From positions 8,618,001 through 8,682,000 of the forward strand of contig OZ316775.1 in the NCBI GenBank assembly GCA_973851085.1: DNA of 64,000 nucleotides. Reading direction: 5' to 3'. The notes below the pieces were generated by a model that was not told the origin of the DNA, did not search any database, and was given only the letters and a program-made list of their open reading frames with translations. Both the position numbers and the translations under genes were made by a program. How positions within the stretch are numbered: position 1 is the stretch's first letter; each line of letters starts with the position of its first letter. Positions 15,244 through 52,600 of this stretch are shown one piece after another. This DNA comes from Ptychomitrium polyphyllum. Its lineage: Eukaryota.

Positions 15244-17659
15244 GGAAATGAAAGAGGATGAATGAGAAATAGGCAAGTCAAAGGTGGATGAAAAGTTGCA
15301 GTTTGTAGCCCACCAGCCTTGACTCCACCCCCTCGCTTGCATCCCTCCTTTGCCACTGCCCCGTACACTGCACCCTGGTCCTTGGTGAGCCACACGGGTC
15401 GTGTAAATGGAAAAAAAGGTTGTTTGTGATAAAAATAGGATTGTTATGAGCGTGAGCAAAAAGGTTGTGGTTATGAGCGAAATGATCATTGGAAGCCAAA
15501 ATGGTCGTTGTAAGAATAAAGATTGTTGCAATGGAGGTATTTGAATGCGGAGATCTGCGTGTGGAGGCGTTTATGCGGAAGTCAATCTGCGAAGGTTTAT
15601 GTACAGTAGCAATGGCAGCGAAGCCCTTATGGTATGGCAGTGAAGGCAAGGTGGTAAAGGCGAAGTAGCATTGAGGCAAGAACATGGCAATGTGGAAGTA
15701 GGGTTAAGGTTTGCAAGGGCAGAATCAAGACCAAGGGGGATGGTGGGACCAGAAAAACAAGTCAGAATATGATTAGTCTTATAATCTTTATGATCTAATT
15801 ATTTTATTTTATTTTTTAATTTCATCTACGTCCTCTTTTATTGTTGTATGCATAACATGTTGTTAATAATGAAGATCAAATTCAAAGAGTTGTTGCAGTA
15901 CATTCCAATTTGAAGCAAAGTTATGGTATATTTTTCCAAAAATTAAATTTTGGAAAATAATTAAAAGTTGAAAATAACTTTTGAATAAAGATCTTCAAGA
16001 AGGCCATACCAATGGTCATGGAAAACTTAAATTTTGCCCAACATCATGATATTTTGTGCTATGTTTGTCTTTATAGCGGTGCTTATTATTTCTAGCAACA
16101 AAGATTTTGTTTAGAAGATTATGTATATTTGTAACATGAAGCACCTAATATTCTTAATATAAAGGTGAGGTGGACAATTTTTGGTGTATAAAATGTATTG
16201 TCCAATGCTATATTGTTGCTTAAGGATAAAGATGGTAGAAAGAATCAAAAACATTCCAAAAATTGTACTCCATATTATCTTCCTGTTTATGGTATTTTGT
16301 ATTTTGAATAAATAATTGTTTTAGTGAGTTTTCCTTGTTTTGTGTGTATTAAGAAGAAAAATATGGCTACCCTCTTACTATGTGATTAATGCTAATATAA
16401 TTGGCATATGCAATATTTGACACCATTTCTTTTTACACTACCTTTTGAAGATTGCATTTGTCATTATTGCAAATAATCTTCTAATTGACATATCTTATTA
16501 TATAAAATGTTGAGGAAAAAATTGTAACTTATTTACTAAAATTGAAGATCAAGACTTCAAAGAAAGAAGCTATTCAAAAAGCTTGATTTAGAATATCAAA
16601 GTCTTGTAACATAGGTGATTTACAAATAGCCATGTAAAGAAATATATTCTATTTTAGAAATAATTGATTAATGATTCTCTTCTTCATTCATGTTCTACAA
16701 ATTCAAAAATTTTACTACCAATTATTCCTTTCAATACATTAAATATTTTTAGTTCAACTTTAAGTGGATGTTATCAAAAGCTAATATAATTAAAAATATT
16801 CTATGATCGATTTAATTCCATATTTTTAATGACAAAATTGTAGTCAACTTCTTTTGTATTAAGCAAAAAAATATAATTTGCTAGCAAAAAATCAATTGTT
16901 TCAAATATTCTATTAATATCAATAGAATAACCTAATGAAAAAAAAGTTTAAAATTAGGTCATGATTTAGATGCCATTAGTGAAGAAGTTTTTTGTACAAG
17001 TATAAAAATAATTTTTGGTGGATAGCAAACTACCTTCCACCTTTGTAAATTTGGCATTCTTGCTTTAAACATACTTCCTTTATGTACAAATTCTTCATGT
17101 ACATAATTCAAAGCATTTTACAATGCATGAATAAAAAAAAATTCTTTTAAATATTTGCAATCTATAATATGTTTTAAATTTGAATATATATACAATTATT
17201 ATAACTAAGTTGTGGAAAAAATAGTTGTTTGTAATTGCTATAATTTGGAGCATGCATTAATTAAATTGAAGACATATTTTTTTATGGACGTGTAATTTTT
17301 ATCCATCTAAAAATCAATAGCGTATATAAAAAATATCTAATTTGCGGAACTTGAATTAATTCATTAATATAATTAAGAAAAAATACAACAAATTCATAAA
17401 ATACATACATTCTTTTATTAATTCAATACAAGTATTAATAATTATCATTTCAAAAGAATAAAAATATAATAATATAGTTGGTAGTACTTCATATAAAACT
17501 TCAATAATAATAATTGTGCTATGTAATAAATTATAAATATAGAAATTTCATTGTTCTTTGGCCATTCTATCATATGTCTTTAGATTATCTTTAAGATTCT
17601 CAACTATGATAGAAGTGTAATTTTGTCTTTTGTAGTAAGAAAATTTGTAAGAATGATAG

Positions 17660-22100: not shown

Positions 22101-25100
22101 ACTAAGCAATGTCATGGAGTGGAGTACGCCAAGATCAATTCGAGATGTTCAATGCTTCTTGGAATTTGCAAACTTCTACAGGATATTTTTTAAGGATTAT
22201 TCCAAGATTGCGGCACCATTAACACGTCTTACAAGGAAGTAAAAATTCATTTGGAATGAAGAAGCGGAAAAAACATTTCAAAGTCTTAAGAAGTCATTCA
22301 CGTCAACTCCAATCCTTATTCATCCAAATCCATCAAAGCCTTTCTATTTGGAAGCGGATGCCTCAGATTTTGCGCTTGGCTCAGTACTCTCAGAATATGA
22401 TGAAGACGGGAGATTTCAATCTCTTGCCTTTCGTTCAAGGAACATCTCAGCGGCAGAGATCAACTATGATATACATGATAAAGAACTACTTGCAATTGTG
22501 GATGCGTTTGAAGAATGGCGGCACTTATTAGAAAGAGCTCAACATACCATCACGATATACACAGACCACAAGAACTTGGAGAATTTCATGAGTGCGCGCG
22601 TTTTGAATCGCCGTCAAGCAAGGTGGAGTATGTTGCTTTTCAAATTTTACTTTGTCATTACCTATCAAGATGGTAGCTTACAAGGTAAGTCAGATGCGTT
22701 ATCTCGAAGATCTTAATTGGTTCTTCCTCCTAGAGATGATGTTTTGAATCAATAAAGGACTATTTTATTAAAGCCAGAGAATCTTCAATTAAAAGCAATG
22801 GTTATTAGAACAACATCCCATCTTGACAAAATTTGGAAGGCTTTGAAGAATGATGTATTTGTCTCAAATATAAAGAAGCGCCTCAAAGACAATGGAGATC
22901 CTTCAAATAGCGATGAGGACTTTGAATTTCAAGAGGGTCCACTTTATTATAAAGGAATTTTGTTCCTACCTCAAAACTCTTTGCGGTTGAAGATCTTTCA
23001 AATAAGTCATGATTTTCCAGCAGCAAGACATTTTGGATTCAATAAAACAATGGGGTTGATTGCTAGAGATTATTGGTGGCCACAAATGTGGAAGTACGTG
23101 AAGGACTATGTTCAATCATGCAACACTTGTGTAAGAGCCAAGGTACCAAGAAACCAACCTCATGGTCTTCTCCATCCGCTTCTAGTACCAAAGGGCCCAT
23201 GGTTGTCTTTGTCAATGAATTTTGTTACGGACCTTCCAAATTCCGATTCTAAAGATTCTATTTTGGTAGTGGTGGATTGATTTATCAAAATGACACATTT
23301 CATTCTATGCAATAAGACGGTATTGGGAGAAGAAACTACTAAGTTGTTCCTAAATCACGTCAACCGCATACATGGACTACCAGATGATATTGTACCCGAT
23401 CAAGGGTTGCAGTTCATTTCCAACTTTTGAAAGGCTCTATTCCAGCTGTTGCGTATAAAGATCATTCTTTCTTTAGCACACCATCTGCAAACTGATGGCC
23501 AAACTGAACATGTGAATCAAATTTTGGAGTAGTACCTTTGTTGTAGCATAAACTACCAGCAAGACAACTAGATGGATCTCTTGCCTTTGGCAGAGTTTTT
23601 TTACAACAATACAATGCATTCTTCAACAACTCAAAGTCCATTCTTTGCAAACTATGGCCATCATCTTTGAGCAGATCCTTTTCAAGTGAAGTATGTTGGA
23701 AGTCCTGCAGCAGAGGATTTTGCAATTCAACTTGCTAAAATCTATCAAGGAATTACCTTCCAATTACAACAAACTCAAGATCGTTACAAAACTTATGCAA
23801 ATTGCCATAAAAAAAACCATCCAAAGTCCAAGGTTGGAGATAATGTATGGCTTCCACGACAAAATATACAAACAAAAAAACCATCAAAGAAGTTGAACTA
23901 TCAAAGGCTGGGACCGTTTGAAATCAACAAACAGATAAATCTGGTTAATTATTGCTCAAAACTACCACCAAGCATGCAAATTCATCTAATATTTCATGTA
24001 TCGTTGTTGGAAACCTATAACAAATTATATATATCAGAGAGGATTGTCCCTCTGGCCCTTTTGCTAGAAATCAATAATGAAATAAAACATGAAATTGAAG
24101 AGATCTTAGATTCACGCACTAAGAACAGACATGTGGAGTACCTTATACATTGGCAAGGATATGGCATCAATGACCAAACATGGAAACCTTCAACGAATGT
24201 AACAAATGCATCCGAGAAGATACGCGAATTTCATCAAAGATGTCCTCAAAAACTAGGTCAGTGATGATGTGTCATCAATAGCCATTAGCTTCACAGAGAA
24301 GTTTTTCCTTAATAAATAAGTATAAGAAAGGAGGAGAGATATCCAAACCTCCAATTGTATGCAGCATTATTTCCAAGATAGATTATTTTTAAATCCTAGA
24401 TAGTATGTTAAATCTTTGTGTAATCATGAATATGCATGAAGAGTGGTCGGCCATGCCTTCATCAACAACAGCATCTGTTGAGCCAACTCAACTTTCAGCC
24501 TTTGGTAATGGAGGATCTAAGTCAAGATATGAGAGGGACATTCCAATGTTGAGTACGACCTCGTACAAAAGTATTGGCTAATTGCCCTTCACATTCTAGT
24601 CTTGATTCAGATGCTCGCGCTCTAATCATCTTATTAGAAGTTGGAAGAGTCACTCCTAGAGGACCCAAAATCTTGTTTGGAGGTTGTTTTGAAGGACTTA
24701 ATTAAGATCAGATCTTAGGATGGGACATTTCAACAACACAAGTCTTGGCTAGTGGCCATTGGCGCTTTTTGCAAGGACTAGTTGAACCAGTGAATAAAGA
24801 ACAACAAGCAGAGTATGTTATTCACTCCTTCGATAAATTTTGGAATTTATAGAAATGTGACAAGCAAGCCAAAAAAAGAGCTCCTCATGGAACTCGTTGC
24901 AAAATGAAGAAGTGATGTCACGGACCTAAATCATGCAATATAGTCCTTAGAACATTCTAAAACCTTCTAGTATACTATAATAGCTTCTTAGAATACTTTT
25001 AAATGTCTCCATAGCCTTTTTATGTTTTTAGGAAGCTTCTTAGGAATGTTCTTAGGAAGCTTTTCAAGAAAGTTCTACTTCTTTAGAAAACTTACTAAGA

Positions 25101-25418: not shown

Positions 25419-28400
25419 AATTGAGTCTTCATATTTGTTTGAAGCTTTGCCATCATTTTGGCAAATTCCTCTGCTGTTGAATTTTTAGATCATGGAGGCT
25501 CTAACATATCCATTTTTAGATGATGTCCATAATTGGAGTAAAATGGTGTTTGTTGGGTGGAAGCGAGAGTGGTGTTGTTGTAGGCAATCTTAGCTAATGC
25601 CAAGTAAGAAGTCCAATCATCTTATTCATAGTTGATGGTACACTTCAAATATTGCTCCAAGATTTAGTTGACTTTCTTTATTTTGCCATCGATTTAAGGA
25701 TCAAAGGCAAAAAAAAGTTTTATATCTGCCTTAAGGATCTTAAAGAGCGTCTTCTAAAATCTTAATACAAATTGTGGTCCACGATCTGATATAATATTAT
25801 TGGATAATCCATAGTAGCGGTAGACATTATTCATGAAGAGTGTGGCAGTTTTATCATCCGTAATTGTCTTCTTGCAAGGTACAAAATATGCCATCTTGGT
25901 CAATCGGTCTACCACAACAAAGATGGTATCAAAAAAATTTGACGGCGGAAGATCTGTAATGAATTCTATTGAAAGAGATGACCACTCTTGCCTTGGAATA
26001 GGTAGTGGTTGGAGAAGTCCATATGGACGGTGTCGAAGGTTTTTTGACTTAGAGCAGGTATCACATGAGATTACAAACTCCTTAGGAGCCTTCTTTATTT
26101 AAGGCCACCAAAAGTCGAGAGAGAGGAATTCCAAGGTTTTGTTGAATCTAAAATGTCCAGCCGCAGGAAAGTCATAACATGTTTGAAGTACAGAAAGGCA
26201 AACTAGTCCTTCAGGAATATATAGACATTTGTCAAAGTAGAGAAGGTTGTTTTCTAATTTGAATTTAGACACATTTTTAGGGAGGTTGTTGGAATGACGC
26301 TTGATATCAAGAAGAAGAGGGTCCTTGGTAGATGCCACATGCACCTGGTCAAGAAACGATGAATCCACCAAAGTTGAAATGGTGGTTATGCATGTACAAA
26401 ACCGTTTGGGTTTCAATGAAGTTGCTCGTTGTTGATTGTGTGCTGCTTCTCCATTCTTTGGCTCAAGGTGTGATGGCCTTATGAAAGCATCTGATAACCC
26501 TTGCTGTTTTTTGGATCAATATGCGATGCAAAAATCAAATTGAGATAGAAACATACTCCAACAAGTTTGGCGGGATTCAAAACACGGGCTGACATGAAAT
26601 ATTCCAAGTTCTTATGATTTGTATATACAATCACTACATGTGCGGTACTCTTGAGCAAGTGACGCCATTTTTGGAAGGAATCCACAATTGTAAGGAGTTC
26701 CTTGTCGTGGATCTTGTAATTGATTTCTGTAGCTAAATTTTTTCAAAAATAGAATGCAATCGGATAGAGTCTTCCTTCATTCCCCGTTTGCGACAAAACA
26801 GCTTCTAGTGCAAAGTTGGAAGAACTTATCTCAAGATAGAATTGCTTTAAACAATCCAGATGGATTTGAATAGGAGCTGTCGTAAAAGCTTGCTTCAAAA
26901 TTTGGAATGCATCCTCAACATCGGATCTCCACTCAAGCTTTTCCTTGCATGTTAGTTGCGTGAATGGTGTAGCTATTCGAGAATAGTCCTTGATGAAGAT
27001 CTTATAGAAGTTTGCAAATTTAAGAAAGCATTGGACATCACATACTGATTATGGCCTCGTCCAATCACTAACTGCTTTAACCTTCTTTGGATCCATCAAT
27101 AGTCCTTTGTTGCAAATGTTATAACTAAGGAATTCTACTTGAGGTTTGTGGAATACACATTTCTCTAGCTTGACATATAAACCGGCATCTTGTAGCTTTT
27201 GTAGAACTATGTGGACATGCTGTTTATATTCCTCTGGATGCTTTGAATAAATCAAAATATCATACAGATAGCATGCAACAAAATCATTGAAGCACTCCCA
27301 AAATATATCATTCATCAAGTGTTGAAAAATGGCGGGTGCGTTGGTAATTCCAAAAGGCATGACAGTGTATTCAAAATGTCCGTACCTTGTCCGAAATGTT
27401 GTCTTCTATTTATCTCTTTCTTTGATACGCACTAAATTATAGGCTCTTTGCAGGTCTATTTTGGTATAGACCTTTGCTTGGCCAAATTGATCAAGAAGCC
27501 CAAGTATCAACAACAATGGATATCAGTTCTTCACCGTCATTTTGTTGAAGCCGTAGTAATTGACACACATTCGCAAGGATCCATCTTTCTTCTTTATAAA
27601 AAGTATTGGAGCACCTATAGGAGACTTTGAATGTTGTATGAAGTTCTTGGCTAAGTTTTCATCAATATTCTCCCTCATTGATGAAAGCTCGTTTTGGGAT
27701 AAAATATAGATAGGTTCAAATGATAGTTGGGCGCCGTCTTGGAGGTTTATGGCATAGTTGTAAGGACAATGTTCTAGTAGGATGTCTCCATTCTTCTTTT
27801 TAAATACATTGTTGAACTCTTTATACTTTTATAAAATGATTGAGGATGAAGCCACAACTTTGGACGTTGGAATTGCATACACAGCAAAAGAAGCACTAGC
27901 CTTTGATGCTCTCATAAATGCTCTAGCTCCAATGAAGAGAGGCTTTTTATATCTATAAGATGCATCAGCTTCTTCCGTAGGCTTAGTAGTTACAGGCTCT
28001 AATGATGGAAATTCTACTTTGCAAGATGCCCAAGTTGTACTTTTTAAGCTAAAAATGCCTAAACTGATGGGACTTGACGGAGACCTAATGACATTAAATA
28101 TTACTTGGCTATTATGGTTGTTCAATGTTACTGTTAATGTATTGGTTTTGTGAATAACATCTTTGGAAGATAAATGTTGATCATATATGACTTCTATATT
28201 GACGGGTTTGGATTTTCTACTAAAAAAAAACTTATGGGTTTTCATAAATTCTTTGTCAATAAAGCAAGCAAAGGCTCCTAAATCCATTAGAGCAAGGCTT
28301 TTGAGCTTTTGAACACCTAAACAAACAGGTATAATAAAACTAGAGAAAGGATGGGCTAATAAGACAAGACTTTTGTTTTCTTGCGAAGGAAGCGAATTTA

Positions 28401-29673
28401 GCTGCACGGTTCCTACTGTGGCTGGAAGTCCTCGTTTTTCTGCAAAGCATTTGGCATGGTGGTTGTACCTCTCATCTGATATATATGTGGAGGTTTGTCT
28501 AGGCAATTATCAACCTTGTAGCCAAATTTCCACAATACAAACACAACCTTTGCTCCCTTTGTCGCTTCTTCTCATGTTTGATAAGAGGCTTGAAGCAAAT
28601 TGCATCAATCTGCATGGCTTCCGCTTCCAAATACTTATTAGAGGTAAACAGGGCTGCAGCTATTGAAAAGTTGATATAAGGCCGAGGCATAATCAAAGTT
28701 TATTTATCTTCTTCACGTTGAAATAGACAATTATTACACTTCAAAGTTTGGCTGATGGCCTCATCAAGTGTTTGAAGGTCTAGCATGGATAGCAATAAAA
28801 CTTTTATCTTGTCGTGTACGCCTTAATGAAATTGACTCATTAGTGCTTCTTCTCCCCAATTCATGTCGCATGCAAGTTGTCAAAATTCTGATGCATAAAT
28901 TGATATAGAACGTGGCCTTTGGCATAAGGCACAAATCTTAGTAGTTGCAGAATGAAGCTTATTATGGTCACCAAATGCTTTTGTAAATGTGGCTAGGAAT
29001 GCTTCAAAGTTGCTAAGTATGGGAGAATTCTTCTCAAAAAGTGGTGCAAACTAGGACAATGTTTATTTTTAGAGCAACGTTCCTACCAAACCAATACGCA
29101 AAGTGTCCGTAGGATACTGCCAAAATTGAAGCAAGGCTAACAAACTGAATTTGGTTTACAAAGCCCCGGAATTTCAAATGCATACCATTAAACTTCTTTG
29201 GAAGGCTAATTCTTGGTTCTTTGGTTGTTGGCATTGAATTCCTAGCTTGAACTTGTCCGTCATCTACTAAATCAGGTCTAAACAATGATGCACCTAAATT
29301 GACTTGGAATAGCAACTTTGATGTTTTTGCTCCTTGACCATTGTGTATGGTCAAATATAGTTCTTTGTTTTGCTTGGATAAAGTCTTGATCTTGATCTTC
29401 AATGCTTCAAGGGCATTGATGATGGAATCTAACTTCATTTCTTTTAAATCAATCATATTGACTCCTTCACCCCCTGGTATAGAAATGAAGTGGGAATAGA
29501 GAAAAACTGCTATCTACGGAAGAAACTAAAGACATTTCAAGAAGAAATATCACTCCAAAGGAGGATAATCCGCAACTTCTAGAGTGCTATAGTGCTTTCA
29601 AGAAAGAAGGGTGATCCGCTTTCTATTAAGAAAGACCAAGCTTTGATATTGTTGTATGACAGCCTTGACAAAC

Positions 29674-36879: not shown

Positions 36880-39029
36880 GTCCTAAACAAGAGTAAGCAC
36901 TAGCAAAATGATGGTGCTCACATCTGTAGCCCTTACTTGCCCCTAGTACTAGCATGTAGCAACTGTACAATTTACTAAGATAGTAACTTCAAGAACTAAC
37001 AAGACAGCTACTTTAGTAATCAGCGACTCCAGCAGCAAAGCCTATAGCAACCTCAAGATCAAGGAATCTAACAACTTCAGCAACCAAAAGTGGACGAGTG
37101 AAGGCATATAGTTCGTGCAGCCCCAAATCCCATCTTTTAGCTTGCCCGTTGCTCTCTTTGGCTTAAAACTAAGATTTTTGATCTTGCTTATTGTCGAGTT
37201 GAGTCACATCTAAATCTCCAAAAGTCAAAGCTGGTACCAATCAGAAAAAAATACTTACTTTGCCTTTGCTTGGGCTACTCTTTTAGAAGTGTTATTTTTG
37301 CTAACTCATATTGTGTGATTTGAAATTTGGTGCCTTTATATGTTTTATTTAGTGGATGATGGCAGAATTCAATGAAAAGGTTCAAGAAATTACCTTGGTC
37401 TATGCTAGTCCATCTGCGGCTGATTTTAACATCTTTGATGTTGTTGGTGGTGCGTCCAATTGATGCAAGGCATGAGTTCTCTCTTTGCATCTTTTCTAGG
37501 TCCTGGTCCTTTTTTAAATTAGTACACAATTGGAATGAGTTTAATCAAAGACTTGTATCTGTTGTATGACCACTTCATATTAAATCTCCTGAAAATGTCA
37601 AGTAAGTATAAGGCTGAACTATAATTTTTTTGTCAAGGAATACTCTATTTGCAAAGCACAGAACATTGACATATAACATTAGTTTACTTAAAACACTTAT
37701 CAATGTACTTATTTGAAATATTTCTTCAAAATCTTCATCTTCCATATTGCATTGTTTATCCATATTATCTAAATGCCTCTTCTCAGAGTTTGATGAAGGT
37801 ATGCTTAGTTGCTCATAGAAAATATTTAAATTGACTATGTTGTTGTTGTTACCAGAATTAAATGACAAAACCCTAGAAATGTCTACCATGTTTATTTCTT
37901 GGCTCTAGGCCTTTTAACTTTCCATTCTAGACATCTTTAGTTGTTTTCTATTGGAAAAGAATAATTCATGCTTTTGATGCTTTTTCTTCTAAACAATTGT
38001 AAGAATAGAAGATCCTAGGACCGTTCCTTTACACATTTGATAACCATGACATTACAATTTTAAGCCCCCAAATGCAATACTATCAACATCAATAGGGAAG
38101 TGACTTATGCCTTCTATTTAACCAACTCTAATTGCAAGCAGAATGAATGCTCAATCATACATCTTCAGTAAATTTATAATATTAATAATTTCTTTTGGCA
38201 TTGTAGTTAAAAAAATAGGTTGTCTTGTTTAACATACAATGTATTTTTTAGGTCATTATAACAATGCACTTCTTTATATTAAGCTACAATTTAAATAAAG
38301 ATGGATTCCATTTATAAAATATACATGCAACTTGCAATTCAATCTCTTTGCCGTCATAACCTTCCTATTATTTACTATATACTATCTTTAAATTCCTATT
38401 AATTCTTATATGCCATCTTTATCTTCTGATAATAATGCCTATTCAACTACCTTGATAATTCTTTCATGTTTCATACCAAATGTTCATGTAGCTTACTTCT
38501 TTGCTTATTTGCCATACTAATTCTTGCACATCTCACATTTTCTATTGTCTTGCAAAGCAATGGTGGACAACCTTACCTTAGTACTAGAAATGATGTTTAT
38601 TCTTGGTGATAGACAAAAAATTCGAATATTGTTTCCTATGGGAGATGATGGTTACAACAATATTAATTATATTTGTGTAAATCTTAGATTTCAATTTATT
38701 AAGGATTCTATGCATATTGATGGAAAAGTCTTTGATCAGGACTTAAAAGGTTTCATTTTTATTATTAGTCAAATTCCCTCAATGAATCTTAAGGGATTGG
38801 TTTGAGTTTTAAAACTCAACAAATACATAATCTATGGAATGACGGATGGCCTTCACAATAGATCCATTAAATATGAAATCTTAAATATGAAATCAAAACC
38901 AAACTCAAATGCATAACAAGCACACCCTCAAGTGCCCTTCCTAGCAAATAAAGAATCCCACCAATCAGCTAGGAACAAACACACACGTTGTTGGAGATGA
39001 TTGCCATGGTAATATTGCTGCAACACTTG

Positions 39030-42000
39030 TACACATCCAAAGTGTTGAAAACTTGAGAGAATCCAATTGCATGAAATAACTCCTCTGGCATTGACATCGG
39101 ATACTATTTTGACTTGGTCTTCTGATTAACTAGACGGTAATCTCCACACATCCGCTTTTCTATCCACTTGCCAAATATATCCTTCTTAGAAGGCATCATT
39201 AAGGCACAAGCATACTCCCTATTGGAGAGCTCAAGCAAACTTGGAGCCAATAACTATTGACAACAAATTTGAACACCAACTTTCTTTGAGGCACTCAACT
39301 TGTAAGGCCGTCGAAAGATTGGATGATCATCCTCCAACTGAATGTGAATGGATTTTCTTCTATAGAATGGATTTTCTTCTATAGACTTTAAGGTCGCTGA
39401 GGCTAAAGGCAAAACAGCAGCAATATGAACAAATAAAAGCCTGTACCCTTTGAGCTTTGGCACTTGTAAGATGTGGCCCTAATTCCAATGACTAATCATA
39501 AAACTCTGTGGTTTTTTTTTTTGCCAATTGAGAACCATTACATGTCGGCACAGCCTCTAATTGCTAATCTATAGCAAAAACAACTCCCATGCCTCCAGCA
39601 TCCTTACTAGAAGCCAAATGAGGAGCTTCACCACCATCATCTATGTGTGAGATGGCGGTTTCACTAGGACATGGAATACCTTGCAAAAAGAGCTGTGAGA
39701 ACATCTCTTGGGCATCTGCTCTTCCAAAGTCTTGCGCCAAAGCAGCAAAAACGCATTGAGCCTGTAGTTCTTCCGTTGCATGCCACTTCAAGCAAAAAAG
39801 TAACTCAGATCCTTAAGCTCAGTGAGTTTTGGCTCTACTGTCCCCTGAACATTGCTCTTTGACCTCAGAAAAAGCAAATGGCCATCATGATGTTGTTGGA
39901 CAGCAAGACAGATGCCAAAATCCATACCAAAGTGTTGAGGTCTATAACTTGGCTTAGAAGAAAGCAACGTTGACTCTCAGTGAGATCATGAGCAGTTGTG
40001 GTGCTTGTCAAAAAATCCATAGCGCGTACCCCTTCATCTGCAGTAGGCTCTTCTTGAATTTGTGAATGTGAAATCCCAAACCATGCCAAGCCCACATACT
40101 CGGAATGCAAAAGATCCCGGATATGTCACCAATGTGGGCAACGTGCCACGAGGTGCCTCTAGCTTGTTGACTAAAGCCAACGGAGACTCATTGTCTTTGG
40201 AAACAGCCAAGGGACCGCAATGATCATCTAAAATATCATCCACCTTGTGTCTAGTGGGTTGTTGGACTCTAGAAAGTGTTGCCGTGAGTACATGAGATGG
40301 TGCCAAGTTGGTCCAAATCCAACGAGGGCGATGTACGTAAGAACCCAATGATGCAACATCCACAAAGATTGGAGGACCAAGGAATTGGCAAATATATTGC
40401 CCATCTTTTAAAACCTTTGTCCGCGTATTATCTAATGGAGGCACATTCTCAAAAATATACCCAAGCAATGTAGCTTGGTGAGTAAACTACCACTTTGTAA
40501 GGCAGATCAAGTCTGCAAATAAACTTGACCAGGGGTCATTCAAACCCCGACCCGCTCCGACATGTGAATGGCCTTGATAAGGCCATCCAGCAATGAGTAA
40601 GTCAATATGGTCCAATCTCCTCAAATCCTAATCACTAATGAGAGTGACATCTTGAGGTAGTTGGCCAAAATAATCGTGAATGGCAGATGAAGGTAACTGC
40701 TCTAAATATAGAACCAATAACCTCTGAAGGTGATGTCGGGTTGCATGGTTGGATACAAACCCAATATTCTCATGAATGTACTATCGGACCTTAAGTATGG
40801 CCTCCAAAATTGTTGCCAAACAGGTACCAATGCCTGCAATTAGCTCCACATGGGTAATATCCTCAGTTGGTAGATGCCAATGAATAGGATGGGCAAAGGC
40901 AGATAGTGATGAGGTAGCTGGTACCTCCAAAAGCTCCAATAAAGCCACAATCTCCCGCCATTGCTAAGATAGCTCTACCGGAGTGCTCTACAATGGAAAT
41001 GGGTCCTTGCAATGTTGTGCAGGAACCTCTAAAGGTAGTAAATCATGTTGTGCCACTAAACTAGACATAAATGCAAATGTCTCCTCTAGTAAAATAGGTC
41101 TACTAGGTAAGTCTGCTGCTAAGGCGCTGCAACCAAATAAAGTCTTTGTTGACATAGTCATGGCAACTAATGCAAATGCTATAGGATTGAGTTTTTTCCT
41201 TCCATTTCCTGCGGACCATCCTAGCCTAATCCATGTCTCCTTAGTCCAGTTGATTAAACCAAAATTGAGCGGATAAAGTGCCTACTGACCAATTAAAATA
41301 TCATAGTTGGTAGCAGTTGTCACTGCCCAATGTAGTGACAAGTATGAATAAAAAGGTCTAGAACCAATGCGGAGAATCAACTGCAATGGTTGTCTACTAT
41401 AGCCAGTAGTACGCTCTGTGCCTCCAACTAAAGTGATGATGGTAAATAGACAAGGCTCAAGGTCTGCATCACCTAGACCTAGTTCTTGAGCAAGTCGCTT
41501 CCCAATCATAACTAGCTGAGCACCAGACTCCATTATAACACTCATCGGTGAAGTACGAGTGGCATTGCCATCGGTACGGTTAACAACAAATATATTGTTG
41601 TCATTAACTAGCTGCACCACTCCTAGTTGCATGTTCTGATGTTCCCAAGCAGGCCTAGTGATTGCTTGAGTCACTTCAAGAGATGGTATAGCCACCTTGC
41701 CTTCCAACATCTTGCCAACCAAGTGAAAATTTGGTGTTGCCATCTCAACAATGGAGAAAATAGGCATATACAATACTTTGTGTTCCAAGGTGTGTGCCAA
41801 GTCTCTAAAAGCTGTTCCTCCATCTTGTGCTAAAGTTGGAAGAATAAGTCAAGATGCAGAACCGACATCTGCAAGACTAAATGATAATGGCAATTGGATT
41901 TAGCCAATCTGATCTAGTAAACCACTATGACGCGTACGCACGCTTTGTTGTAATTCATCCATGTTGGTCGTCACCATTTTGACTGCTGTTTGGACACATG

Positions 42001-43450
42001 TAGCAACTGCAGCCACCATCGTCCCTGAAGCCCCAAACATATAAACATTTGAAGTAAAAGTGCTTGTTCCACCCTAAGGAACCACTCTAGAGTCAGTGAC
42101 GTGACCCAATGAAGCCACAGTCTAGAACTTCTTCTCCAACTCTATGATCTTGGCTTCTAATGCTTTCTCTTTCTCCAAAATAGGCAGCTTCTCTGGATAT
42201 AAAATAAAGCAGTGATTATCATCATGGTTGAGCTTGCCACAATGAGAAAACTTCAATTGCTTCTTCTTGGCCTTCTCTGCAGTCTTGACCACATTTGCCC
42301 TCTGCTTAGACTTATCCAATGTTGGAGCTCTCTTCTTCTTAGGGCAATTAGGATCATTCTTGGTATAGCCAGCTTCACCACACCTCCAACAATACAAAGT
42401 CTTCTGAGGCTGAGTCTCTGCCAAACTATTTGTAGCAATAGCAGCCTTCTTGAACTTGGAAGCATCTGTCATCCAAGAAACCATATCAGTGGCATTGTGC
42501 TGATAGAGAGTTTCATCACACATCTCACTTTTGTAAATGCTTGAGCCAACGTTGCTCAACCGTAGTAGTTGAGAATAATCCTTGGCATAGCCAAGTCTAG
42601 CAGTCGCTTATCAACATTGGACAAAAAGATCTTGACAAGTTGATTCTCTGCAAATACACCTCCAGATTCCATTGCAAACCTCGCCAACCGGGTATACATG
42701 GTACGTGGAGTATCTTCCTTTTCCCGATAGAAGTCTTAGATGCATTGCATCTGATCACGCCTAAAGCCCCCATACTCAACTTCCAGATGAGTTATGAACA
42801 GCGAAGTGGCTCAAAACAATGGTGGCTGACCAATTGCAGGCAACGTTGCCCGCGTAGCCTGCGCCACTCGTGATATTGTGACCGAGGGTTGACTCACTAC
42901 CAAAGCCTTGCCCTTTGTGTCTTTGGAAGATGAGCCACTCCCTTCTACAAGCTTCACTTCCACCTTCACTGCAGGGATAAAATTGGCCACTGCACCTTCC
43001 TTCAGGGCAGAGATGAGCTCCACACAAGCCTCCCATTAGCGTTCCACCTCACGCAATTGGAACTCATGCTCATCAATCTACCACTCATATGTCTGAAGTG
43101 CCTCAAATTCCAAATGCTATGGCAATAACTCAAATGCGTACCAATTATTGAAACTCGAAAACCGTTGGCACTTTTCCTTCATCCAGGTCCAAAACATGAG
43201 CTTCCAGTCAGGTAGGAAAATGCTCCTAGCCCTTCTAGAAAACCAATCCCTTATGACATGGCTGGAATCGTCATCCGTCTCGTCAAACGTGCCTATACTC
43301 CAAACCCAAAGCCTACTAGTAGTATCCAACATCAAAAGAGGCTCAAAAGCCTCGTTGGTATCTACCGCTAACTCAAAGTCTTTGGTGTGTGCACCCTCCA
43401 AGTAGTCTGGTGACGGAGATTGATAATATCAACTCCGTGTCTGCACCATA
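39030..43450 (-). mobile_element. Truncated, decayed Gypsy-like retroelement: gag(zinc knuckles)-aspartic protease-C5 DNA methyltransferase-RT (N-terminal part)
   Basis: Gag-like region 43400-42120 with CWRCGEAGY...C and (S)HCGKLNHDDNHC. Protease 41540-41285 (VIMESGAQ...YDILIGQ). MTase ~40860-39930. RT start IQLEDDHPIFRRPYKLS...KRMCGDYRLVN...YPMSMPEELF...FNTLD, truncated at ~39030. No LTRs recognised. Confidence 0.85.
39930..40860 (-). pseudogene. C5 DNA-cytosine methyltransferase domain (decayed) within the retroelement pol region
   Basis: Motif I ITHVELIAGIG; motif IV DLLIAGWP[Y]QGHS; motif VI YIFENVP; motif VIII HRPRWIWTN; motifs IX/X EGVRAMDF...LTESQRCFLLSQVIDL. Three in-frame stops and one frameshift near 40100. 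Confidence 0.85.
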
Positions 43451-44249
43451 AAAATGACTACTTGGGTACTTGCAACTATCTAAAAGATAAATGGGCAATT
43501 TGCACCTGCACTTGCAATCACTATCAACTACGCGATGAATTGGTCATCACCTCTGATCATCACAAGTCCAATAAGTACCGCCCACATGGTACCAACAAAA
43601 AAGATCTCGCCGGTTATCAACCCGACCTCATCCCTACGGTAAGCCTATAAATCCAGACTAAATACAATACAAAATGGAGCAACACTGTAAACCGACAGCA
43701 ATAATGCTCGCAACATGGAAAGGTACCATAACAAAAATAAAAAATCTAAAGCGTGGATTTTCTTCCCAACAACAAATTGCAAAATGCAAGTGGACTAGAG
43801 CAACCAGCATACGCCTGTGGATGATAGCCACAAAGTTGCAAAAACCTGCAATGCAAAAGTAAACACTTAAGGTGTTTCCCAAGTCTTAAACTAAGAAGAT
43901 AATAGGAAACATTGGCTGCGATGTTCAAAAATACAAGTCTCCCAATGAAAATAGCAACACTTAGGGATACAACGCACCACAAAGCCAATCCACCACTAAA
44001 ATTGGATTAAATGGCTAAAATCCCAAAATGCCCTCACATTCCATTTCCAAAGTTTAGACTCTATTTTATGTTATTTAAAAAAAAAACACATAAAAATGTG
44101 ATTTTTGAAAATCTTATATGACCAAAAGTTTTCTTTCCTAATAAATGTATTCACCCCTAGAGAACTCAAATCCGCAAACGAAATTCAAAAAAATCCTTTT
44201 TTGCAAAAGTTATGAAGTTGCAGTTGAGAAATTAGAGGCTGTACAGAGA

Positions 44250-44420
44250 CAGATTTAGGACCCGCAAGATTTAGGTCCTTGACGGTTTTAGAACCCCTGT
44301 ATAAAATCTACGAAAACAAATATTCTGAAATCCACGAAAACAAATACTATGAAATCCACGAAAAGGAAGATTTCTAAATCTAGGAAAAGTGAAGATTCTG
44401 AAATCTAAGAAATGTGAAGA
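44250..44420. repeat. Degenerate tandem repeats (~17 bp x3, then ~24 bp x5)
   Basis: GATTTAGGACC/GATTTAGGTCC/GTTTTAGAACC units, followed by AAATC(C/T)ACGAAAACAAATA..CTG-type units. Confidence 0.7.
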
Positions 44421-44949
44421 TGTCAGGTCGCACTATACCAGCACAGACCAGCACAGAAAGGGAAGAAACTTTGAAAACTTGAAATGGCTCCAATTTTTTC
44501 AAAAATTGTCCAAATCATATGCCATTTGTTGCGTTTTCTTTTTTTAACCGCGTTGTACAACAACGTAATAAGTAATAAGTACTCATAAACTTTCTTCAAT
44601 TATTCAAATTCAAATTTAAGTTCTAAAGAAATAAATGTGGAAACATTGTTGTCAAGTAACCTAGTTTCTCTCTACACTCAAGAAACTAATTATTCACACA
44701 AGAGTCAAGCTATCTCTCACTCCACAAAGGAAGAATCTAAGAGTGTAAGTGTAGGAGGGAACTCAAAATTTTACTAAAGGCTACTAAACCATAGCCACAA
44801 GAAAGCAACAACATAAGTTTCCTCCCCAAAAACACACTCACAAGACTTGACTTGACAACAATGTCAAGTCAAGAAGCTCTTCCTCTACTTACAACCAAAC
44901 CCTAGTTAGATGAGCCCTGAAATTTGGATGAAACTCATTCAAATCTAAC

Positions 44950-46500
44950 ATGGACTTTTATGGGAGTCCATTTAATAAACTAATTGACGTGATGTGGCCC
45001 TTCAATGTTACTTCACGTGACAAAATGTATACATTGCAATTCCAAGCAAAGCTCTATTGAGAGATGGACAAATGCCAAGATAGCCATGCGTGAACTAGGA
45101 TTATAACATCCAAAAATAATATGGATCTCACTTTTAGAATGTTTTCATGCCTAGATCGATGCAACAACGATGAGTATAGCTACTTATATTGTGCAAATAG
45201 CATTGTGCTTGCAAACAAAACCAAGTGGGATGGAATTTCATCTTTCACATTTGAAATTAAACATATATTACCTAAAGATTCTATGATAGTTTGCAAAACT
45301 TGTAATGTTCCTCTTTCTTGCTTAGACAGTTGTATGGCTAAGATTTATTACATTCTTGTATATAGATACATAACTTGTGTATGTGTCCATTTGGATTTGT
45401 ATAGTCATTTTATCAAGACTGATGATTAAAGAGGTCCAATGGAGAGGACATAGAGCCTTGTTGGAAAAAAAATTGTAAGAACGCCTTCATTAACAAATTC
45501 TGCCATTGTCCTTGAAGCTAACAAAGAATTTTTTAACAAATTGCTACTCTTTCCCAAAGGAATACTTGAAAAGACCCTTGTTCATAATTAACTAATGCCT
45601 ACATTCAGTAAGTTCAAGCACATATTTTCTTCCAACATTTGTAACGCAATTATCTCTTTCCAATACTTGCGCCTATTTGGTGTCATAAATAATATCACTA
45701 AACTTAAAAGTTTTAGCAATTGGACATTTGTTCAAGACAAAAAGTTTCATTGCCAAAGAACTCATTCCAATAAAGTCTTTGTTTTTAAAATGTCAAAGAT
45801 GGGACCTAAGAGCGGATTGGATTTAATAAAGCGGTTGCAAGTTGGCGATAATCTTGAAAATACTTGGCTCAAGTTTGACCATCTCAAATATGTCAAAAGT
45901 TGGACTACTATGGCTTATCATGCCTACAATGTTAACTATTATTGAATTATAAATAGAGCTATTTGCATCATGCAGCTTAAAAACGTTGTTGGTCAAACTG
46001 TGTTCTGGAAGAATTTCAACACTATTATTATTAGGCACAACATCTTCAGCCCAAGTTCAAGGGATTCATGGCAAATAGTACAAAGGCCAATTGGAATGTT
46101 AATTTTCTTATCTATCATAGCAAAGATGCATCAATTCCTATAAAGAATAATGAGAAAGAATTTCTCCCTTCTATTAAATCCAAGCCCTAGAGAAACACAC
46201 AAAGGTTGGCATTTGTGCAAACTTCCAAGATCAACATCAATAATTCTGTCCACAATACAAGAACGCTAAAACATTTGTTGATGTTGAGACTTGTTATTTA
46301 GCCATAAAATCTTAGTGGCTTTCTCCTGGAACAACAAATAATGAAAGACTTGTCCATCTTGACATTTGATTAGCATTTTTGCATTTCCAGTATTGCCAAT
46401 GGAGTGGATTTATAAAACTAGTACGTCTTGAACCATCTTCTTAAAACAAATTTTGTACTAATGAGCCGCATCTAGAAAGTGAGGAAGTCTTTGGATCATT
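44950..46500 (+). pseudogene. Decayed transposase-like sequence, possibly MULE-like; may continue at 52970-53350 beyond element C
   Basis: Cys-rich segment (CKTCNVP..C...C...CVCVH) followed by FDHLKYVKSWTTMAYHAY...AICIMQ...QTVFWKN...FKGFMANS..ANWN, resembling a DDE/RNase H-fold core. Family assignment is tentative. Confidence 0.4.
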
Positions 46501-46692: not shown

Positions 46693-49600
46693 TGTTAGGG
46701 ACACAAGAAACAAGAAGCAGAAACGAAGTGTTTCCCAAGAATTAGCTTCCAAAGAGCTAATGATTAACAAGAACTTTGATACAAATACTAGAACAAAGTA
46801 GGATTCAAGATGATCCACAACTTGTGTTGACAAGACTAAGGAATACCTTGTCTTGCCTCTTATTTATACTAGGACATTTGTATCTCCTAGGATACTTCTA
46901 AAGAAGCTTCCTACAAAGCTTAAGAAGGTTCTGGAAGTCTAAGGAACCTTTCCAAGAAGTTTCCTAAGATGTTGGAACCTTCCTAAGAAGCTTCCAAGGA
47001 ATTGGAACCTTCCTTGGAAATTTCCTAAGGTAGCGGAACTTTCTTAGGAAGTTTCATAAAGAGGTAGAACTTTTCTAGGAAGTTTCCTAGGAAGTAACCT
47101 AAGATGATAGAACCTTCCTAGGAAGTTTCCTAAAGTGGAGGAACTTTTCTAGGAAGCTTCCTGAAAACATAAAAAGGCTATGGAGACATCTAAAAGTATT
47201 TTAAGAAGCTATTATGATATACTAGAAGGTTCTAGAATGTTCTAAAGACTATGTTGCATGATTAATGTCCGTGACATCACCTCCCCATTTAGCGACGAGT
47301 TCCATGAACAGTTGTTTTCTTGGCTTGCTTGTCACATTTCTACAAATTCCAAAATTTGTCGAAGGAATGAAGCAACATACTCTGCTCGTTGTTCTTTGTT
47401 CACTGGTTCAACTGGTCCTTGCAAGAAGCGTCGATGACCACCAACTAAGACTTGTGTTGTTGAAATGTCCCATCCCAAGATCTGATCTTGATTAAGTCCT
47501 TCAAAACAACCTCCAAACAAGATTTCGGATCCTCTAGGAGTGACTCTTCCAATTTCTAACAAGATGACTAGAGCGCGAGCATCTGAATCAAGACTGGAAT
47601 GTGAAGGGCGACTAGTTAATACTTCTGTACGAAGTCGTACTCAACGTTGGGATGTCCCTCTCATATCTTGACTTAGATCCTCCGTTACTGAGGGCTGAGA
47701 AAGTTGAGTTGGCTCAACAGATGCTGTTGTTGATGAAGGCGTGGCCGACTGCTCTTCACGCATATCCATGATAACACGAAGATTTGACATACTGGCTAGG
47801 ATCTAGAAATGATCTATCTTGGAAATAATGCTGCATACAGTTGGAGGTTTAGATATCTCTCCTCCCTTCTTATACTTGTCTATGAAGGAAAAACTTCTCT
47901 ATGAAGCTAACGGTTGTCGATGACACATCATCACTGACCTGGTTTCTGAGGATATCTTTGATGAAATTCGAATACCTTCTCGGATGCATTTGTTACATTC
48001 GTTGAAGGTTTCCATGTTCGGTCATTGATGCCATATCCTTGCCAATGTATAAGGTACTCCATACGTCCATTCTTGATGCATGAATCTAAGATATCTTCCA
48101 CTTCATATTCAATTTCATTATTGATTTCCAATGGAGGAGGCGGACGAACAATTCTCTCTAGTAAACATGATTTGTTATAGATTTCCAACAACAATACGTG
48201 GAATACTGGATGAATTTGCATGCTTGGTGGTTGCTTTAGGCGATAACTAACCAGATTTATTTGTTTGCTGATTTCAAACGGTCCCAGCCTTTGATAGTCC
48301 AACTTCTTTGATGGTCTTTTTGTCTGTATATTTTGTCGTAGGAGCCATACGTTATCTCCAACCTTGAACTTTGGATGGTCTTTTCAATGGCAATCTGCAT
48401 AAGTTTTGTAACAATCTTGAGCTTGTTGTAACTGGAAGGTAATTTCTTGATGGATTTTAGCAAGTTGAATTGCAAAATCCTCTGCTGCAGGACTTCCAAC
48501 ATGCTCCACTTGAAATGGATCTGTTCGAGGATGATGCCCATAGTTTGCAAAGAATGGACTTTGACTTATTAAAGAATGCACCGTATTGTTGTAAGCAATT
48601 CTGCCAAAGGCAAGAGGTCCATCCAGTTGTCTTGCTGGTAGTTTATGCTACAACAAAGGTATTGCTCCAAAATTTTATTCACACGTTTGGTTTGGCCATC
48701 AGTTTGTGGATGGTGTGCTGAAGAAAGATTGATCTTTACACGCAACAACTGGAATAGAGCCCTCCAAAAATTGGAAATGAATTGCGGCCCCCGATCGGAT
48801 ATAATATCATCTGGTAGTCCATGTATGCAATAGACGTGATTTAAGAACAACTTGGCAGTTTCTTCTCCCGTTACCGTCTTGTTGCATGGAATGAAATGTG
48901 CCATTTTGATAAATCAATCCACCACTACCAAAATAGAATCCTTAGAATTGGAGTTTGGAAGGTCCGTGATAAAATCCATTGATAAAGACAACCATGGGCC
49001 CTTTGGCACTGGAAGTAGATGGAGGAGACTATGAGGTTGGTGCCTTGGTACCTTGGCTTTTGCACAAGTGTCGCATGATCAAATAAAATCCTTCACATAC
49101 TTCCACATTTGTGGCCACCAATAGTCTCTTGCAATCAATTCCATTGTTTTATTGAATCCAAAATGTCCTGCTGCTGGAAAATCATGACTTGCTTGAAGGA
49201 TCTTCAACCGCAAAGGGCCTGGAGATAGGTACAAAAGTCCTTTATAATAAAGTAGGCCCTCTTGGAATTCAAAGTCCTCATTGTTATTTGAGTGACCTCC
49301 ATTGTCTTTGAGGCGCTTCTTTATATTTGAAACAAAGACGTCATTCTTCAAAGCCTTCCGAATTTCATCAAGATGGGATGTTGTCGTTATAATTGTTGTT
49401 TTCAATTGAAGATTCTCTGGTTTCAATAAAACAGTCCTTTGTTGATTCAAAACATCATTTCCAGGTTGAGGAGCTAAATAAGATCTTTGAGATAAGGCAT
49501 CTGGTTTACTTTGCAAGCTACCAGATCGATAGGTAATGACAAAGTCAAATTTGGAAAGCGACATACTCCACTTTGCTTGACGGCAATTCAAAATACGCGC

Positions 49601-52600
49601 ACTCATGAAATATTCCAAGTTCTTGTGGTTTGTGTATATCGTGATGGTATGTTGAGCTCTTTCCAATAAGTGTCGCCATTCTTCAAACGCATCCATAATT
49701 GCAAGTAATTCTTTATCATGTATATCATAGTTGATCTCTGCCGCTGAGATATTCCTTGAACGAAAGGCAAGAGGTTGAAGTCTCCCGTCTTCATCATATT
49801 GTGAGAGTACTGAACCAAGCGCAAAATCTGAGGCATCTGCTTCCAAATAGAAAGGCTTTGATGGATTTGGATGAATAAGAATTGGAGCCAACGTGAATGA
49901 CTTCTTAAGACTTTGAAATGCTTTTTCGGCTTCTTCATCCCAAATGAATTTTTGCTTTCCTATAAGATGTGTTAATGGTGCCGCAATCTTGGAATAATTC
50001 TTGATGAATATCCTGTAGAAGTTTGCAAATTCCAAGAAGCATTGAACATCTCGAATTGATCTTGGCGTACTCCACTCCATGACAGTGCTTATTTTTTTTT
50101 TATCCATATGGATTCTTCCTTTGGAAATGATGTACCCTAAAAATTCAACCGAGGATTCATGGAAAAGGCACTTCTCCAATTTGGCATATAATCCTTGTTG
50201 GCGTAGTTTTTCTAAGACCAATCGCACATGACATTTGTGGTCTTGTTCATCCTTTGAATATATCAAAATGTCATCCAAGTATATGACTACAAAATCGTCC
50301 AAATGTTCATGGAAGATATCATTCATCATATATTGGAAGACCGCGGGGACATTTGTAAGGCCAAAAGGCAAGACATTGTATTCAAAATGACCATACCTAG
50401 ATCGAAAAGCTGTCTTCTATTTGTCTCCTTTTTTGATGCGTACAAGGTTGTAGGCTCCTCTAAGATCAATTTTGGTAAATTTCTTTGCTTGGCCAAGTTG
50501 TTGTAGGAGTCTTGAGATTAATGGTAATGGATAGCAATTCTTCTTTGTTACTTTATTGAGACCTCAATAATCCACGCACATACGTAATGATCCATCTTTC
50601 TTCTTTACAAACAGAATGGATGCTCCAGCAGATGATTTAGAGTGTTGAATGAAACCCTTTCCAAGGTTTTCATCAATATATTCTCTCAAGGCAGCCAACT
50701 CAAATTGTGATAAGTTATAAATAGATCCAAAAGATGGTTGGGCTCCTTCTTGCAACTCAATGGTACAATCGTAAGGCCGGTGCTTTGGTAACATGTCTGC
50801 ATTCTTCTTTTCAAAAACGTCTTTATAATCTTGATATTGACGAGGTATGTTTTGATTAGTCTCTATTGTTGAGCTAGACATTGGCGTGGCATAAACGGCA
50901 TAGATTGGTTCATCTTTTGCCGCGCTCATAAATGCCTTAGCTCCAATAAATGATGGCCCAAGATTTCTTGTGTTTTGACGTATTTTCTTTGAGACCACAC
51001 TCCGTGAGCGCTAGTCAATATCTGGATTATGTAATTCAAACCAAGGAAGGCCCAAAACTATAGGATTTGTTCGGCATTGAATGATGTTGAAGACAATTTT
51101 AGATGCCTGGTCTTTTAAAATAACTTCCAAGGGTTGAGTTTCTTCAATAACGTTGCCAGACGCAAGAGATCGTCCATCAATAATTTCAACAGGTGCGGGA
51201 TATTTTTTCTTTACAAGCACCATGTGATGCTTGGTTGCAAAATCCTTGTCCAAGAAACATGCCGTTGCACCAGCATCTAATAGAACCTCACTAACTATTT
51301 CATCATCTAACAATTTAATTTTGATAGGAAATGTAAAACAAGAGGTAGGGCTTGAAGGTAGTAAGAGACCTTGATTTGATGGTCGTTTCCTTGTGGTGTC
51401 CAGTCGCATGGTCCCTATTGTGACTGGACAGCCTTGTTTTCCAACTCCACCATTGTGCTCTGAGCCTTAAAAGCAGATCCTTTGATTTGGCAATCGCGCA
51501 CTTTATGTCTAGACTTGCCACAATACAAACATAGGTTTTCTCTTTGACGCCTTTCTTTTTCTTCTGGAGTCAAACGTCTGAACTGGGCAGCATCAATTTG
51601 CATAGGTTTTGGTCCTTGTGGTCGACTTTCCGATATTCTTGAAGAAGTGGTAGCTATGCTTTGATGTACTGGTCGCCATCCCAAGCGTTGTTCTTGGCGC
51701 CTCTCAAATAGTCTGTTGTCACATGCTATTGCTTGAGTGATGAATTCGTCCAATGTTTCAATTCTTGGCATTGTGAGTAGCAAGTCCTTGACATTCTTTC
51801 TTAAGCCCCATCAAAATTGTGTAACCAAGGCCTTATCATTCCAATCAAGGTCGCAAGCTGATTGCTAAAATTCTGCAGCATATGTAGCAGCTAAGCGCTG
51901 TCGTTGTTGGAGATTTTGGATCCTTGTCTTAGCCACCCTCTCTCGGTCGGTGTCTCCAAAAGTAGATGTCAATGCTTCTATGAAAGCATCTAAGTTGTTC
52001 AATAATAGTGACTGTTTATTCATTAGTGGTGCAAACCACGATAGTGCATTGTTTGATAAAAGAGTGGCCACAAATCCAACTTGAGTTGTGCCCTCAGGAT
52101 AGCAAGATTGATGCAAACTAAGGAAGAGTCTTACTTGTTGAACAAAGCCTCTCAATTTTGATCTTGATCCATCAAACTTGTCTGGCATGCTAATCTTTGG
52201 CTCTGCGTGGGTTTGACGTAAGCCTTCTCTTCCAATATTGGCTTCTCGCAATTGAACAACCTCTTGATATAGGCTTTGAATATCACCATTAGTTTCTTCA
52301 GCTTGTCGAGTGTGTTGCTCCGAATTGTTGGTGGTATTAAAACGGGCGAGTTCCGTTCGAACTGTGTTTAATAATTCTTGAAGGTCTGCAATAGTTGCTA
52401 ACCTATTCTTTGATGTTCTAGATACGTTATTCATTTTTCAAAACTCTCAAAGACAGAAAGACTATGAGTACCTTCAAAGGAAGAAAATCCACGTCTTTTG
52501 AAAGAAATAATATTTGGTTCTAGAAGGACAAACCAACTCTATGGTGCCAGCTTAAAGGAGGGTAATCCGCAACTTCTAAAACGCTATGGAATCCTAAAGA

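Follow-up and report, generated by a model that had tools for sequence, protein, structure and literature searches.

Can a Gypsy retrotransposon of a moss carry a cytosine methyltransferase as part of its own coding capacity, and how would such an enzyme be made and used? The question was raised by a non-functional element copy on the minus strand (45022 to ~38855) of a 64,000-nt stretch of Ptychomitrium polyphyllum DNA (GCA_973851085.1, OZ316775.1:8,618,001-8,682,000; hereafter the window), in which the original prediction had placed a C5 DNA methyltransferase (DNMT) between the aspartic protease (PR) and the reverse transcriptase (RT). Retrotransposon-borne cytosine methyltransferases have been described for dinoflagellates and one charophyte (PMC5890265). 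We lean modestly towards the following account: the copy is a dead, internally deleted member of a Gypsy family, likely of mosses, whose first open reading frame (ORF1) encodes Gag, PR and a DNMT3-like enzyme, and whose RT, RNase H (RH), integrase (IN) and PHD finger are likely made by readthrough; the enzyme is predicted to be packed at the level of Gag and to methylate CG sites of the cDNA newly made by the element itself.

The methyltransferase domain and its element

With X in place of stop codons, the window frame matched the methyltransferase domain PF00145 at 27.6 bits (cut-off 22, E 2.6e-6). When the domains of L001, an open-frame relative, were used in tblastn, Gag was found at 43299-42266 and residues 1-101 of RT at 39334-39032, with PR and DNMT between them (identity 64-78%), reproducing the predicted order Gag-PR-DNMT-RT. 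A single minus-strand frame from ~42500 to 40070 spans two Cys/His knuckles, PR and methyltransferase motifs I to VIII, and motif IX/X (~40050-39935) lies in the next frame, past a frameshift near 40070; all the predicted motif positions were reproduced (Table 1). The domain is without introns. PF13650 (Asp_protease_2) scored 14.5 bits in the window frame, under its cut-off, as it did in the relatives. The Pfam scan gave no match for the window RT fragment or for the Gag part alone, and a zf-CCHC match was confined to two relatives (P0014 and L004).

A search among longer proteins with the window DNMT yielded 17 matches, all carrying PF00145 (31-54 bits); 11 of them are proteins of 1252-1451 aa with Gag, PR and DNMT and without RT. 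A metagenome scan gave 34 loci from 125 pattern matches, a biased sample since one of the two patterns was motif IV. In a scan of genome contigs, one of 28 candidate stretches proved to be a relative, the whole open-frame element L065 (CADCWO010000201.1); it lies in an assembly titled uncultured cyanobacterium, most likely as contaminating plant DNA. In L001, L003 and L065, ORF1 is followed by a single TAG and by a same-frame ORF2 of 1047 aa with RT, RH, IN and a PHD finger. L002 and L004 have one extra stop each in ORF1, which were treated as mutations. The domain order GAG-PR-RT-RH-IN and the Ty3-like RT (top PDB match of the L001 RT-RH, Ty3 RT, E 3.8e-72) place the family in Ty3/Gypsy.

The intact relatives with a PCQ motif that the original prediction had asked for were found: AGWPCQGHS, ENV and HRxR were kept in 18/18 open-frame DNMT domains, 14 of which came from searches without that motif. 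These domains differ by up to 51% and share an invariant catalytic Cys (motif IV), Glu (VI) and Arg (VIII); the window copy fails at the Cys, where it has Tyr. By its substitution ratios the DNMT domain is under purifying selection in the open-frame relatives, with nonsynonymous to synonymous rates (dN/dS) in unsaturated pairs of 0.10-0.13 for DNMT (three pairs), 0.09-0.13 for PR and 0.02-0.09 for RT (Nei-Gojobori, non-independent pairs).

The prediction that the methyltransferase is integral to the Gypsy polyprotein, and not a captured host gene, was upheld. A search with the protease region only gave 16 matches, 14 with PF00145 and two that stop in the linker just ahead of the domain, and the pairwise distances of PR and DNMT co-vary (Spearman 0.89, 15 sequences). 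Two proteins tried as DNMT-less sisters, P0058 and P0059, were rejected, as both terminate in the PR-DNMT linker.

The closest solved relatives of the enzyme are DNMT3 proteins. Among 50 PDB matches to the L001 DNMT, the top 29 were DNMT3A/B/C (best E 7.5e-8), above HaeIII, HhaI and DRM2. An AlphaFold model built on a 7-sequence alignment reached a predicted confidence (pLDDT) of 70.6, and in a Foldseek search with it all listed rows were DNMT3 (DNMT3B/3A at E 2e-15, TM 0.64). The enzyme is DNMT3-like by sequence and modelled fold, with canonical motif order, the class being set by the nearest solved relatives. Host moss DNMT3 carries DUF3444 after the methyltransferase, and DRM has rearranged motifs (PMC6453930); DUF3444 was not found in Pfam scans of the ORF1 proteins, and their motif order is unrearranged. 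ESM Atlas feature matches, which have no alignment behind them, were generic, mostly viral PF00145 clusters and RT clusters. As to viral donors, the matches in 30 viral loci were confined to short stretches (motifs I-VI, E 2e-13 or weaker), and no RT turned up when viral contigs were scanned for it.

At four-fold sites CG was more depleted than CHG in 5/5 open-frame elements (CG 0.13-0.58, CHG 0.69-1.02), and no such excess was seen in 3/3 DNMT-less Gypsy relics of the window. This bias fits CG self-methylation and is confounded by age and host. One nearly open-frame element (L004:654-6809) stood out by an extreme, CG-only depletion to 0.13 of expectation (CHG 1.02).

At the C-terminus of IN, a PHD finger was met in L001, L003 and L065 instead of a chromodomain. 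The finger is nearest to those of CHD4, PHF12, PHF21A, KAT6A, ATXR5 and KDM5, which are readers of unmodified H3 tails. The family's RT is ~30% identical to the chromovirus RTs of the window.

The stop between the reading frames and relatives in the green lineage

The methyltransferase had been predicted to lie inside pol, and intact copies to hold one continuous PR-DNMT-RT-RH-IN frame. Neither was borne out: the methyltransferase ends ORF1, and a single in-frame stop separates DNMT from RT at 22/22 loci holding both. At each of these the stop is followed by CAR-YYN in frame with RT, and at 15 of the 22 the junction is also in frame with DNMT, the other seven being decayed copies. The strict form TAG-CAR-YYA occurs at five of the 22 loci and in the window, and the remaining 17 junctions, all of one decayed subfamily, read CAA CCC after TAG (10) or TAA (7). 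The chance expectation for CARYY is ~0.006 per site, and the six bases are conserved while flanking residues and codons diverge.

Readthrough in tobacco mosaic virus (TMV) needs CAR YYA and reached 32% in a plant reporter (PMC2754532), and in-frame stops also occur in SIRE1, Tca2 and murine leukemia virus (MuLV; PMC2194720). The window's family resembles these systems in having an in-frame stop between two ORFs with a CAR-YYA context (PMC2754532, PMC2194720); because this context is of the TMV type, ORF2 is likely made by readthrough of the stop. It differs in that the upstream ORF comprises Gag, protease and a DNA methyltransferase, and RT-RH-IN-PHD is the part predicted to be read through to.

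When 1.84 billion representatives were searched with a profile, 494 matched at E <=1e-30, and the best 150 of these were surveyed for domains. Among these 150, DNMT lay between RH and IN in 90, after PR or before RT in 16, and beside no other domain detected by blastp in 44; 106 were retroelement polyproteins, and 48 ended in a PHD finger. Most algal-type relatives (P0111-P0257) have Glu before the catalytic Cys (77/150), and the domain sits in two positions of related Gypsy polyproteins. The organisms of 20 wider relatives were looked up, giving five Closterium records, one Scenedesmus 'pol' and 14 without organism; Klebsormidium was named for 0/30 proteins looked up. In FastTree trees the window's family was one clade for RT (0.987) and, together with four unplaced proteins, for DNMT (0.949; unrooted, with phage outgroups only). 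The trees partly disagree, as DNMT groups the PR-DNMT forms weakly (0.85) and RT joins the window's family to the RH-DNMT-IN forms (0.996), with Closterium outside.

Closterium proteins (Zygnematophyceae; CAI7886383.1, CAI5973665.1 and kin) have DNMT upstream of RT-RH-IN, ahead of RT or after PR, and their RT is 47-48% identical to that of L001, compared to 33-47% for the RH-DNMT-IN type. They differ from the window's family in that DNMT shares an ORF with RT wherever RT is present and motif IV reads ECQ; they are database records for which no describing paper was found in the open-access literature. The Scenedesmus sp. PABB004 'pol' (KAF8056149.1) and the RT-RH-DNMT-IN-PHD group share the DNMT clade (about 32-43% identity), a related RT and the C-terminal PHD finger. 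In that group DNMT lies between RH and IN, hence at Pol stoichiometry, and the only named member is a chlorophyte. Given the Closterium relatives, persistence of the lineage from streptophyte algae is the favoured origin.

The known kind to which the family belongs is the Gypsy-DNMT3 of Klebsormidium nitens, KnitGypsy-Dnmt3, an intronless, unrearranged Dnmt3-type domain under purifying selection in a Gypsy element (PMC5890265). Its repeats are DIRS-like, in the order A-coding-B-A-B, with Gypsy domains (PMC5890265), and the same layout is found in the window's family. The DNMT3 type and the shared layout make a tie between the two plausible. Unlike KnitGypsy-Dnmt3, whose DNMT shares an ORF with RT and RH (PMC5890265), the window's family has a land-plant host, a DNMT that ends the Gag-PR ORF and a stop before RT; the words 'PHD' and 'readthrough' are absent from the main text on KnitGypsy-Dnmt3 (PMC5890265). 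SymbioDIRS-Dnmt3, SymbioLINE-Dnmt and EpiLTR/DAM-LTR are also methyltransferase-encoding retrotransposons, of other element classes or enzyme clades, the EpiLTR DNMTs being sister to DNMT4 (PMC5890265; bioRxiv 10.64898/2026.05.21.726589). SymbioDIRS-Dnmt3 domains gave de novo CG methylation in yeast (PMC5890265). Chlamydomonas Gypsy-7a_cRei, compared by its description, is a Gypsy polyprotein with a PHD finger and long terminal repeats (LTRs) of subparts, with no DNMT among its listed domains (bioRxiv 10.1101/2022.06.16.496473).

A 2026 preprint names a streptophyte Gypsy-DNMT3, and its available text mentions neither moss, bryophyte nor land plant (bioRxiv 10.64898/2026.05.21.726589); for 'streptophytes', a DNMT survey of 2025 restates the finding of 2018 (PMC12344493). 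No land-plant family of methyltransferase-bearing retrotransposons was found in the open-access literature; subscription papers, Repbase and the main 2018 supplement were outside this coverage and may list moss members. As far as the literature was searched, the new points are a land-plant family with open-frame members, a Gag-side DNMT set by a conserved leaky-stop context, a PHD finger, confirmed termini, and a green-algal spread with two DNMT positions.

Ends, decay and surroundings of the window copy

The family does not have two equal LTRs. The whole insertion L025 reads TG-A(342 bp)-coding-purine tract-B(113 bp)-GC-A-B-CA with AAGG on each side, and L022 is flanked by CACA on both sides, so that TG...CA ends with a 4-bp target duplication were seen in 2/2 loci with both ends. 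A Phygy-like NCGN target preference was considered and rejected, being absent from both duplications. The B-A junction GACA-nn-TGTC was repeated in L001, L003 and L065. In two sequencing runs of one sample (X1 and X2), 11 and 12 contigs depart from L001 immediately after the end of B (8659) into unlike flanks, indicating that the end of B is the right terminus in the window's species. The split repeats suggest why LTR surveys requiring two matching LTRs could have missed the family.

Three further structural features were observed. Inside the element, B and A meet at a near-palindrome, GACA-GC-TGTC, which resembles two element ends joined with a pair of additional bases, and a purine tract lies ahead of the first B (L025:10238-10805; L001:8648-8668; L003:8228-8248; L065:7051-7060). 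Loci L012, L016 and L017 seem to end past the first B, as if recombination had removed A-B. The decayed copy L022 contains a 468-bp inverted duplication (10858-11325 and 14923-15390).

The window copy, which aligns to L001 at 76-86% (blastn), is dead as predicted. Ten in-frame stops were counted between ~42500 and ~40070, plus frameshifts; the protease site at 41530 reads ESG where relatives have DSG; and the catalytic codon is TAT (40579-40577), one G>A change away from the TGT of L001. Its dN/dS was 0.34-0.52 (Nei-Gojobori). The copy had also been called 3'-truncated, which held only for the terminal B-A-B beyond ~38855; RT was lost by a 2.8-kb internal deletion that joined L001 position 5594 to 8436. 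A second copy of A was not found in the window by blastn self-search, and the terminal end of B, A and the second B are missing from the element. Relative to L001, C>T and G>A changes were found at 26-40% of CG, 24-26% of CHG and 9-12% of CHH sites, compared to 4% for A/T transitions, a pattern that looks like host methylation.

Contigs from the X1 and X2 runs, which may be the window's own source, span both outer element junctions with zero mismatches. They cover 30/30 bins of L001, including the stretch deleted in the window copy, indicating that RT, RH, IN and PHD sequence survives in other copies of the sample. Some copies in the sample have long internal deletions of their own (4850->7921 and 5934->7162 on L001).

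Table 1. Features of the element copy in the window (window coordinates)
Feature	Position	Strand	Basis or remark
Repeat A, 5' terminal, starts TGTCACG	44638..45022 (inner end approximate)	-	matches 3' A of L001 (8787-8996) and L003 (8241-8327)
Internal 5' untranslated region	43450..44637	-	from 43952 aligns to L001 509 onward; rest by position
Gag of ORF1, ATG at 43449, two Cys/His knuckles near 42390 and 42240, stops and frameshifts	42200..43449	-	tblastn 64% to L001 Gag
Aspartic protease, ESG (DSG in open-frame relatives)	41171..41569	-	tblastn 75%
DNMT3-like C5 methyltransferase, Tyr for catalytic Cys, stops, frameshift near 40070	39887..40858	-	PF00145; 65% to L001 DNMT
C5 methyltransferase motifs	I 40849-40827; IV 40591-40568; VI 40450-40442; VIII 40333-40319	-	canonical order
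ORF1/ORF2 junction TAG CAA TTA, candidate leaky stop	39558..39566 (TAG 39566-39564)	-	in frame
ORF2 remnant: linker and first ~100 residues of Gypsy RT	39040..39563	-	tblastn 78% to L001 RT 1-101
Deletion joint, TTGGA microhomology; rest of RT, RNase H, integrase and PHD gone	39036..39040	-	blastn: L001 2990-5594 then 8436-8596 on adjacent window stretches
3' untranslated region, purine tract (~38943-38935), most of repeat B	38855..39035 (outer end approximate)	-	70-74% to L001 8436-8596 and L003 8028-8175

Elsewhere in the window, a second, more decayed relic of the same lineage (15988-16485, plus strand) holds an integrase end and a PHD finger, 57-60% identical to L001. Two close chromovirus-type Gypsy copies with RT, RNase H and integrase lie at 19900-24260 (plus strand), this one with a chromodomain, and at 47900-52440 (minus strand); no DNMT was found in either by tblastn. 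A third decayed Gypsy element (25500-29500, minus strand) has an RT akin to theirs. The first 6 kb of the window is GC-rich (51-59%, compared to 21-44% elsewhere), and an exon of a host SPL/SBP gene lies at ~1029-2042 on the minus strand, ~37 kb from the element. Among 48 matches to its SBP-domain part (1403-2042), the best was a Physcomitrium patens SPL (65% over 96% of the query, E 5.5e-74), followed by Sphagnum (49%, 42%), Ceratodon (43%) and liverworts (39-42%). This one gene points to a moss other than P. patens as the most likely host.

Proposed role of the enzyme

In the account to which we lean, full-length RNA would yield mainly Gag-PR-DNMT, and readthrough would add a minority of Gag-PR-DNMT-RT-RH-IN-PHD. 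The DNMT would enter particles at the level of Gag, because it shares an ORF with Gag, and would methylate CG on the element's new cDNA; catalytic activity, CG preference and the cDNA substrate are suggested by the DNMT3 kinship and the CG-biased depletion. Once the element is integrated, host MET1 could maintain the CG methylation. The PHD finger, judged by its closest solved relatives, would read unmodified H3 tails and steer integration. A bolder version, which we put forward tentatively, is that an ancient Gypsy clade across chlorophytes, zygnematophytes and mosses has held on to an active DNMT3 from a time before there were land plants; the moss leaky stop would put the enzyme on Gag, in bulk per particle, CG-methylated cDNA would be delivered, and the PHD finger of the integrase would read unmodified H3.

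Several observations weigh against packaging and CG methylation of the cDNA as proposed. The controls for CG and CHG depletion are old, dead copies, the metagenome loci carry no host assignment, and host MET1 or DNMT3 could cause the CG loss. At 17/22 junctions the sixth base of CAA CCC does not fit the CAR-YYA consensus, and several of these loci are probably the same insertion, leaving about four or five independent lineages, with DNMT identity down to about 50%. Glu-Cys is the motif IV form of 77 of the 150 wider relatives, and Pro-Cys that of only 43 (other, 11; not parsed, 19). In yeast, no methylation was obtained with the KnitGypsy-Dnmt3 domain, a result that its authors call inconclusive (PMC5890265). 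The model of the L001 DNMT falls below pLDDT 50 at residues 201-268, the target-recognition region, so its sequence specificity is not readable from the model.

An active enzyme might instead be freed by the protease and work in the nucleus, on the insertion site or on existing copies, in a self-limiting or chromatin-shaping role, and not on particle cDNA. The same motif and selection data would agree with this, abundant ORF1 product would be a source of free enzyme, engagement of the element with chromatin is shown by its PHD finger, and a host benefit of slowed transposition has been discussed (PMC5890265). We nevertheless judge nuclear action to be rather unlikely, as the fusion to Gag argues for packaging and Pfam scans of ORF1 show no chromatin-targeting domain on the DNMT itself.

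It is less likely still that the domain was kept for a non-catalytic job, such as binding of nucleic acid or S-adenosylmethionine, or as a decoy or partner of host DNMT3, with the CG loss made by the host. The inactivity of the KnitGypsy domain in yeast (PMC5890265) and the variable motif IV of the wider clade would suit such a role, but the catalytic Cys, the Glu of ENV and the Arg of motif VIII are invariant in 18/18 domains despite their divergence.

Independently of where or whether the enzyme acts, ORF2 could be expressed by splicing, reinitiation or an internal promoter, the stop context being conserved for another reason. Ogre elements split GAG-PROT from RT-RH-INT by an intron (PMC6317226), readthrough of Tca2 was undetectable in yeast (PMC2194720), and CAA CCC falls short of the full consensus. 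Such a route appears about as improbable as a non-catalytic role: no spacer separates the ORFs, the frame is kept in all open-frame copies, the first Met of ORF2 falls within RT (residue 117, L001), and the six bases are conserved while the neighbouring codons are not.

Finally, the possibility that the methyltransferase is a retrocopy of a host DNMT3 or DRM gene, a nested insertion or a chimera of the assembly is effectively ruled out, even though mosses have host DNMT3 genes (PMC6453930) and the window is rich in nested repeats, by the same in-frame position in dozens of independent records, the joint divergence of PR and DNMT, the canonical motif order without DUF3444, the retroelement polyproteins among the homologues and the contigs across both outer junctions.

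If the bolder version is true, the element would rebuild the reader-writer pair of animal DNMT3 and, unguided by the host, start de novo CG methylation in the genome of a land plant. A concrete dosage prediction follows from the position of the enzyme in the Gag ORF, and none such from the algal forms with a single ORF. Mosses lend themselves to genetics, and P. patens mutants exist for MET1, CMT, DNMT3 and DRM (PMC6453930); what such enzymes do for the element thus becomes testable.

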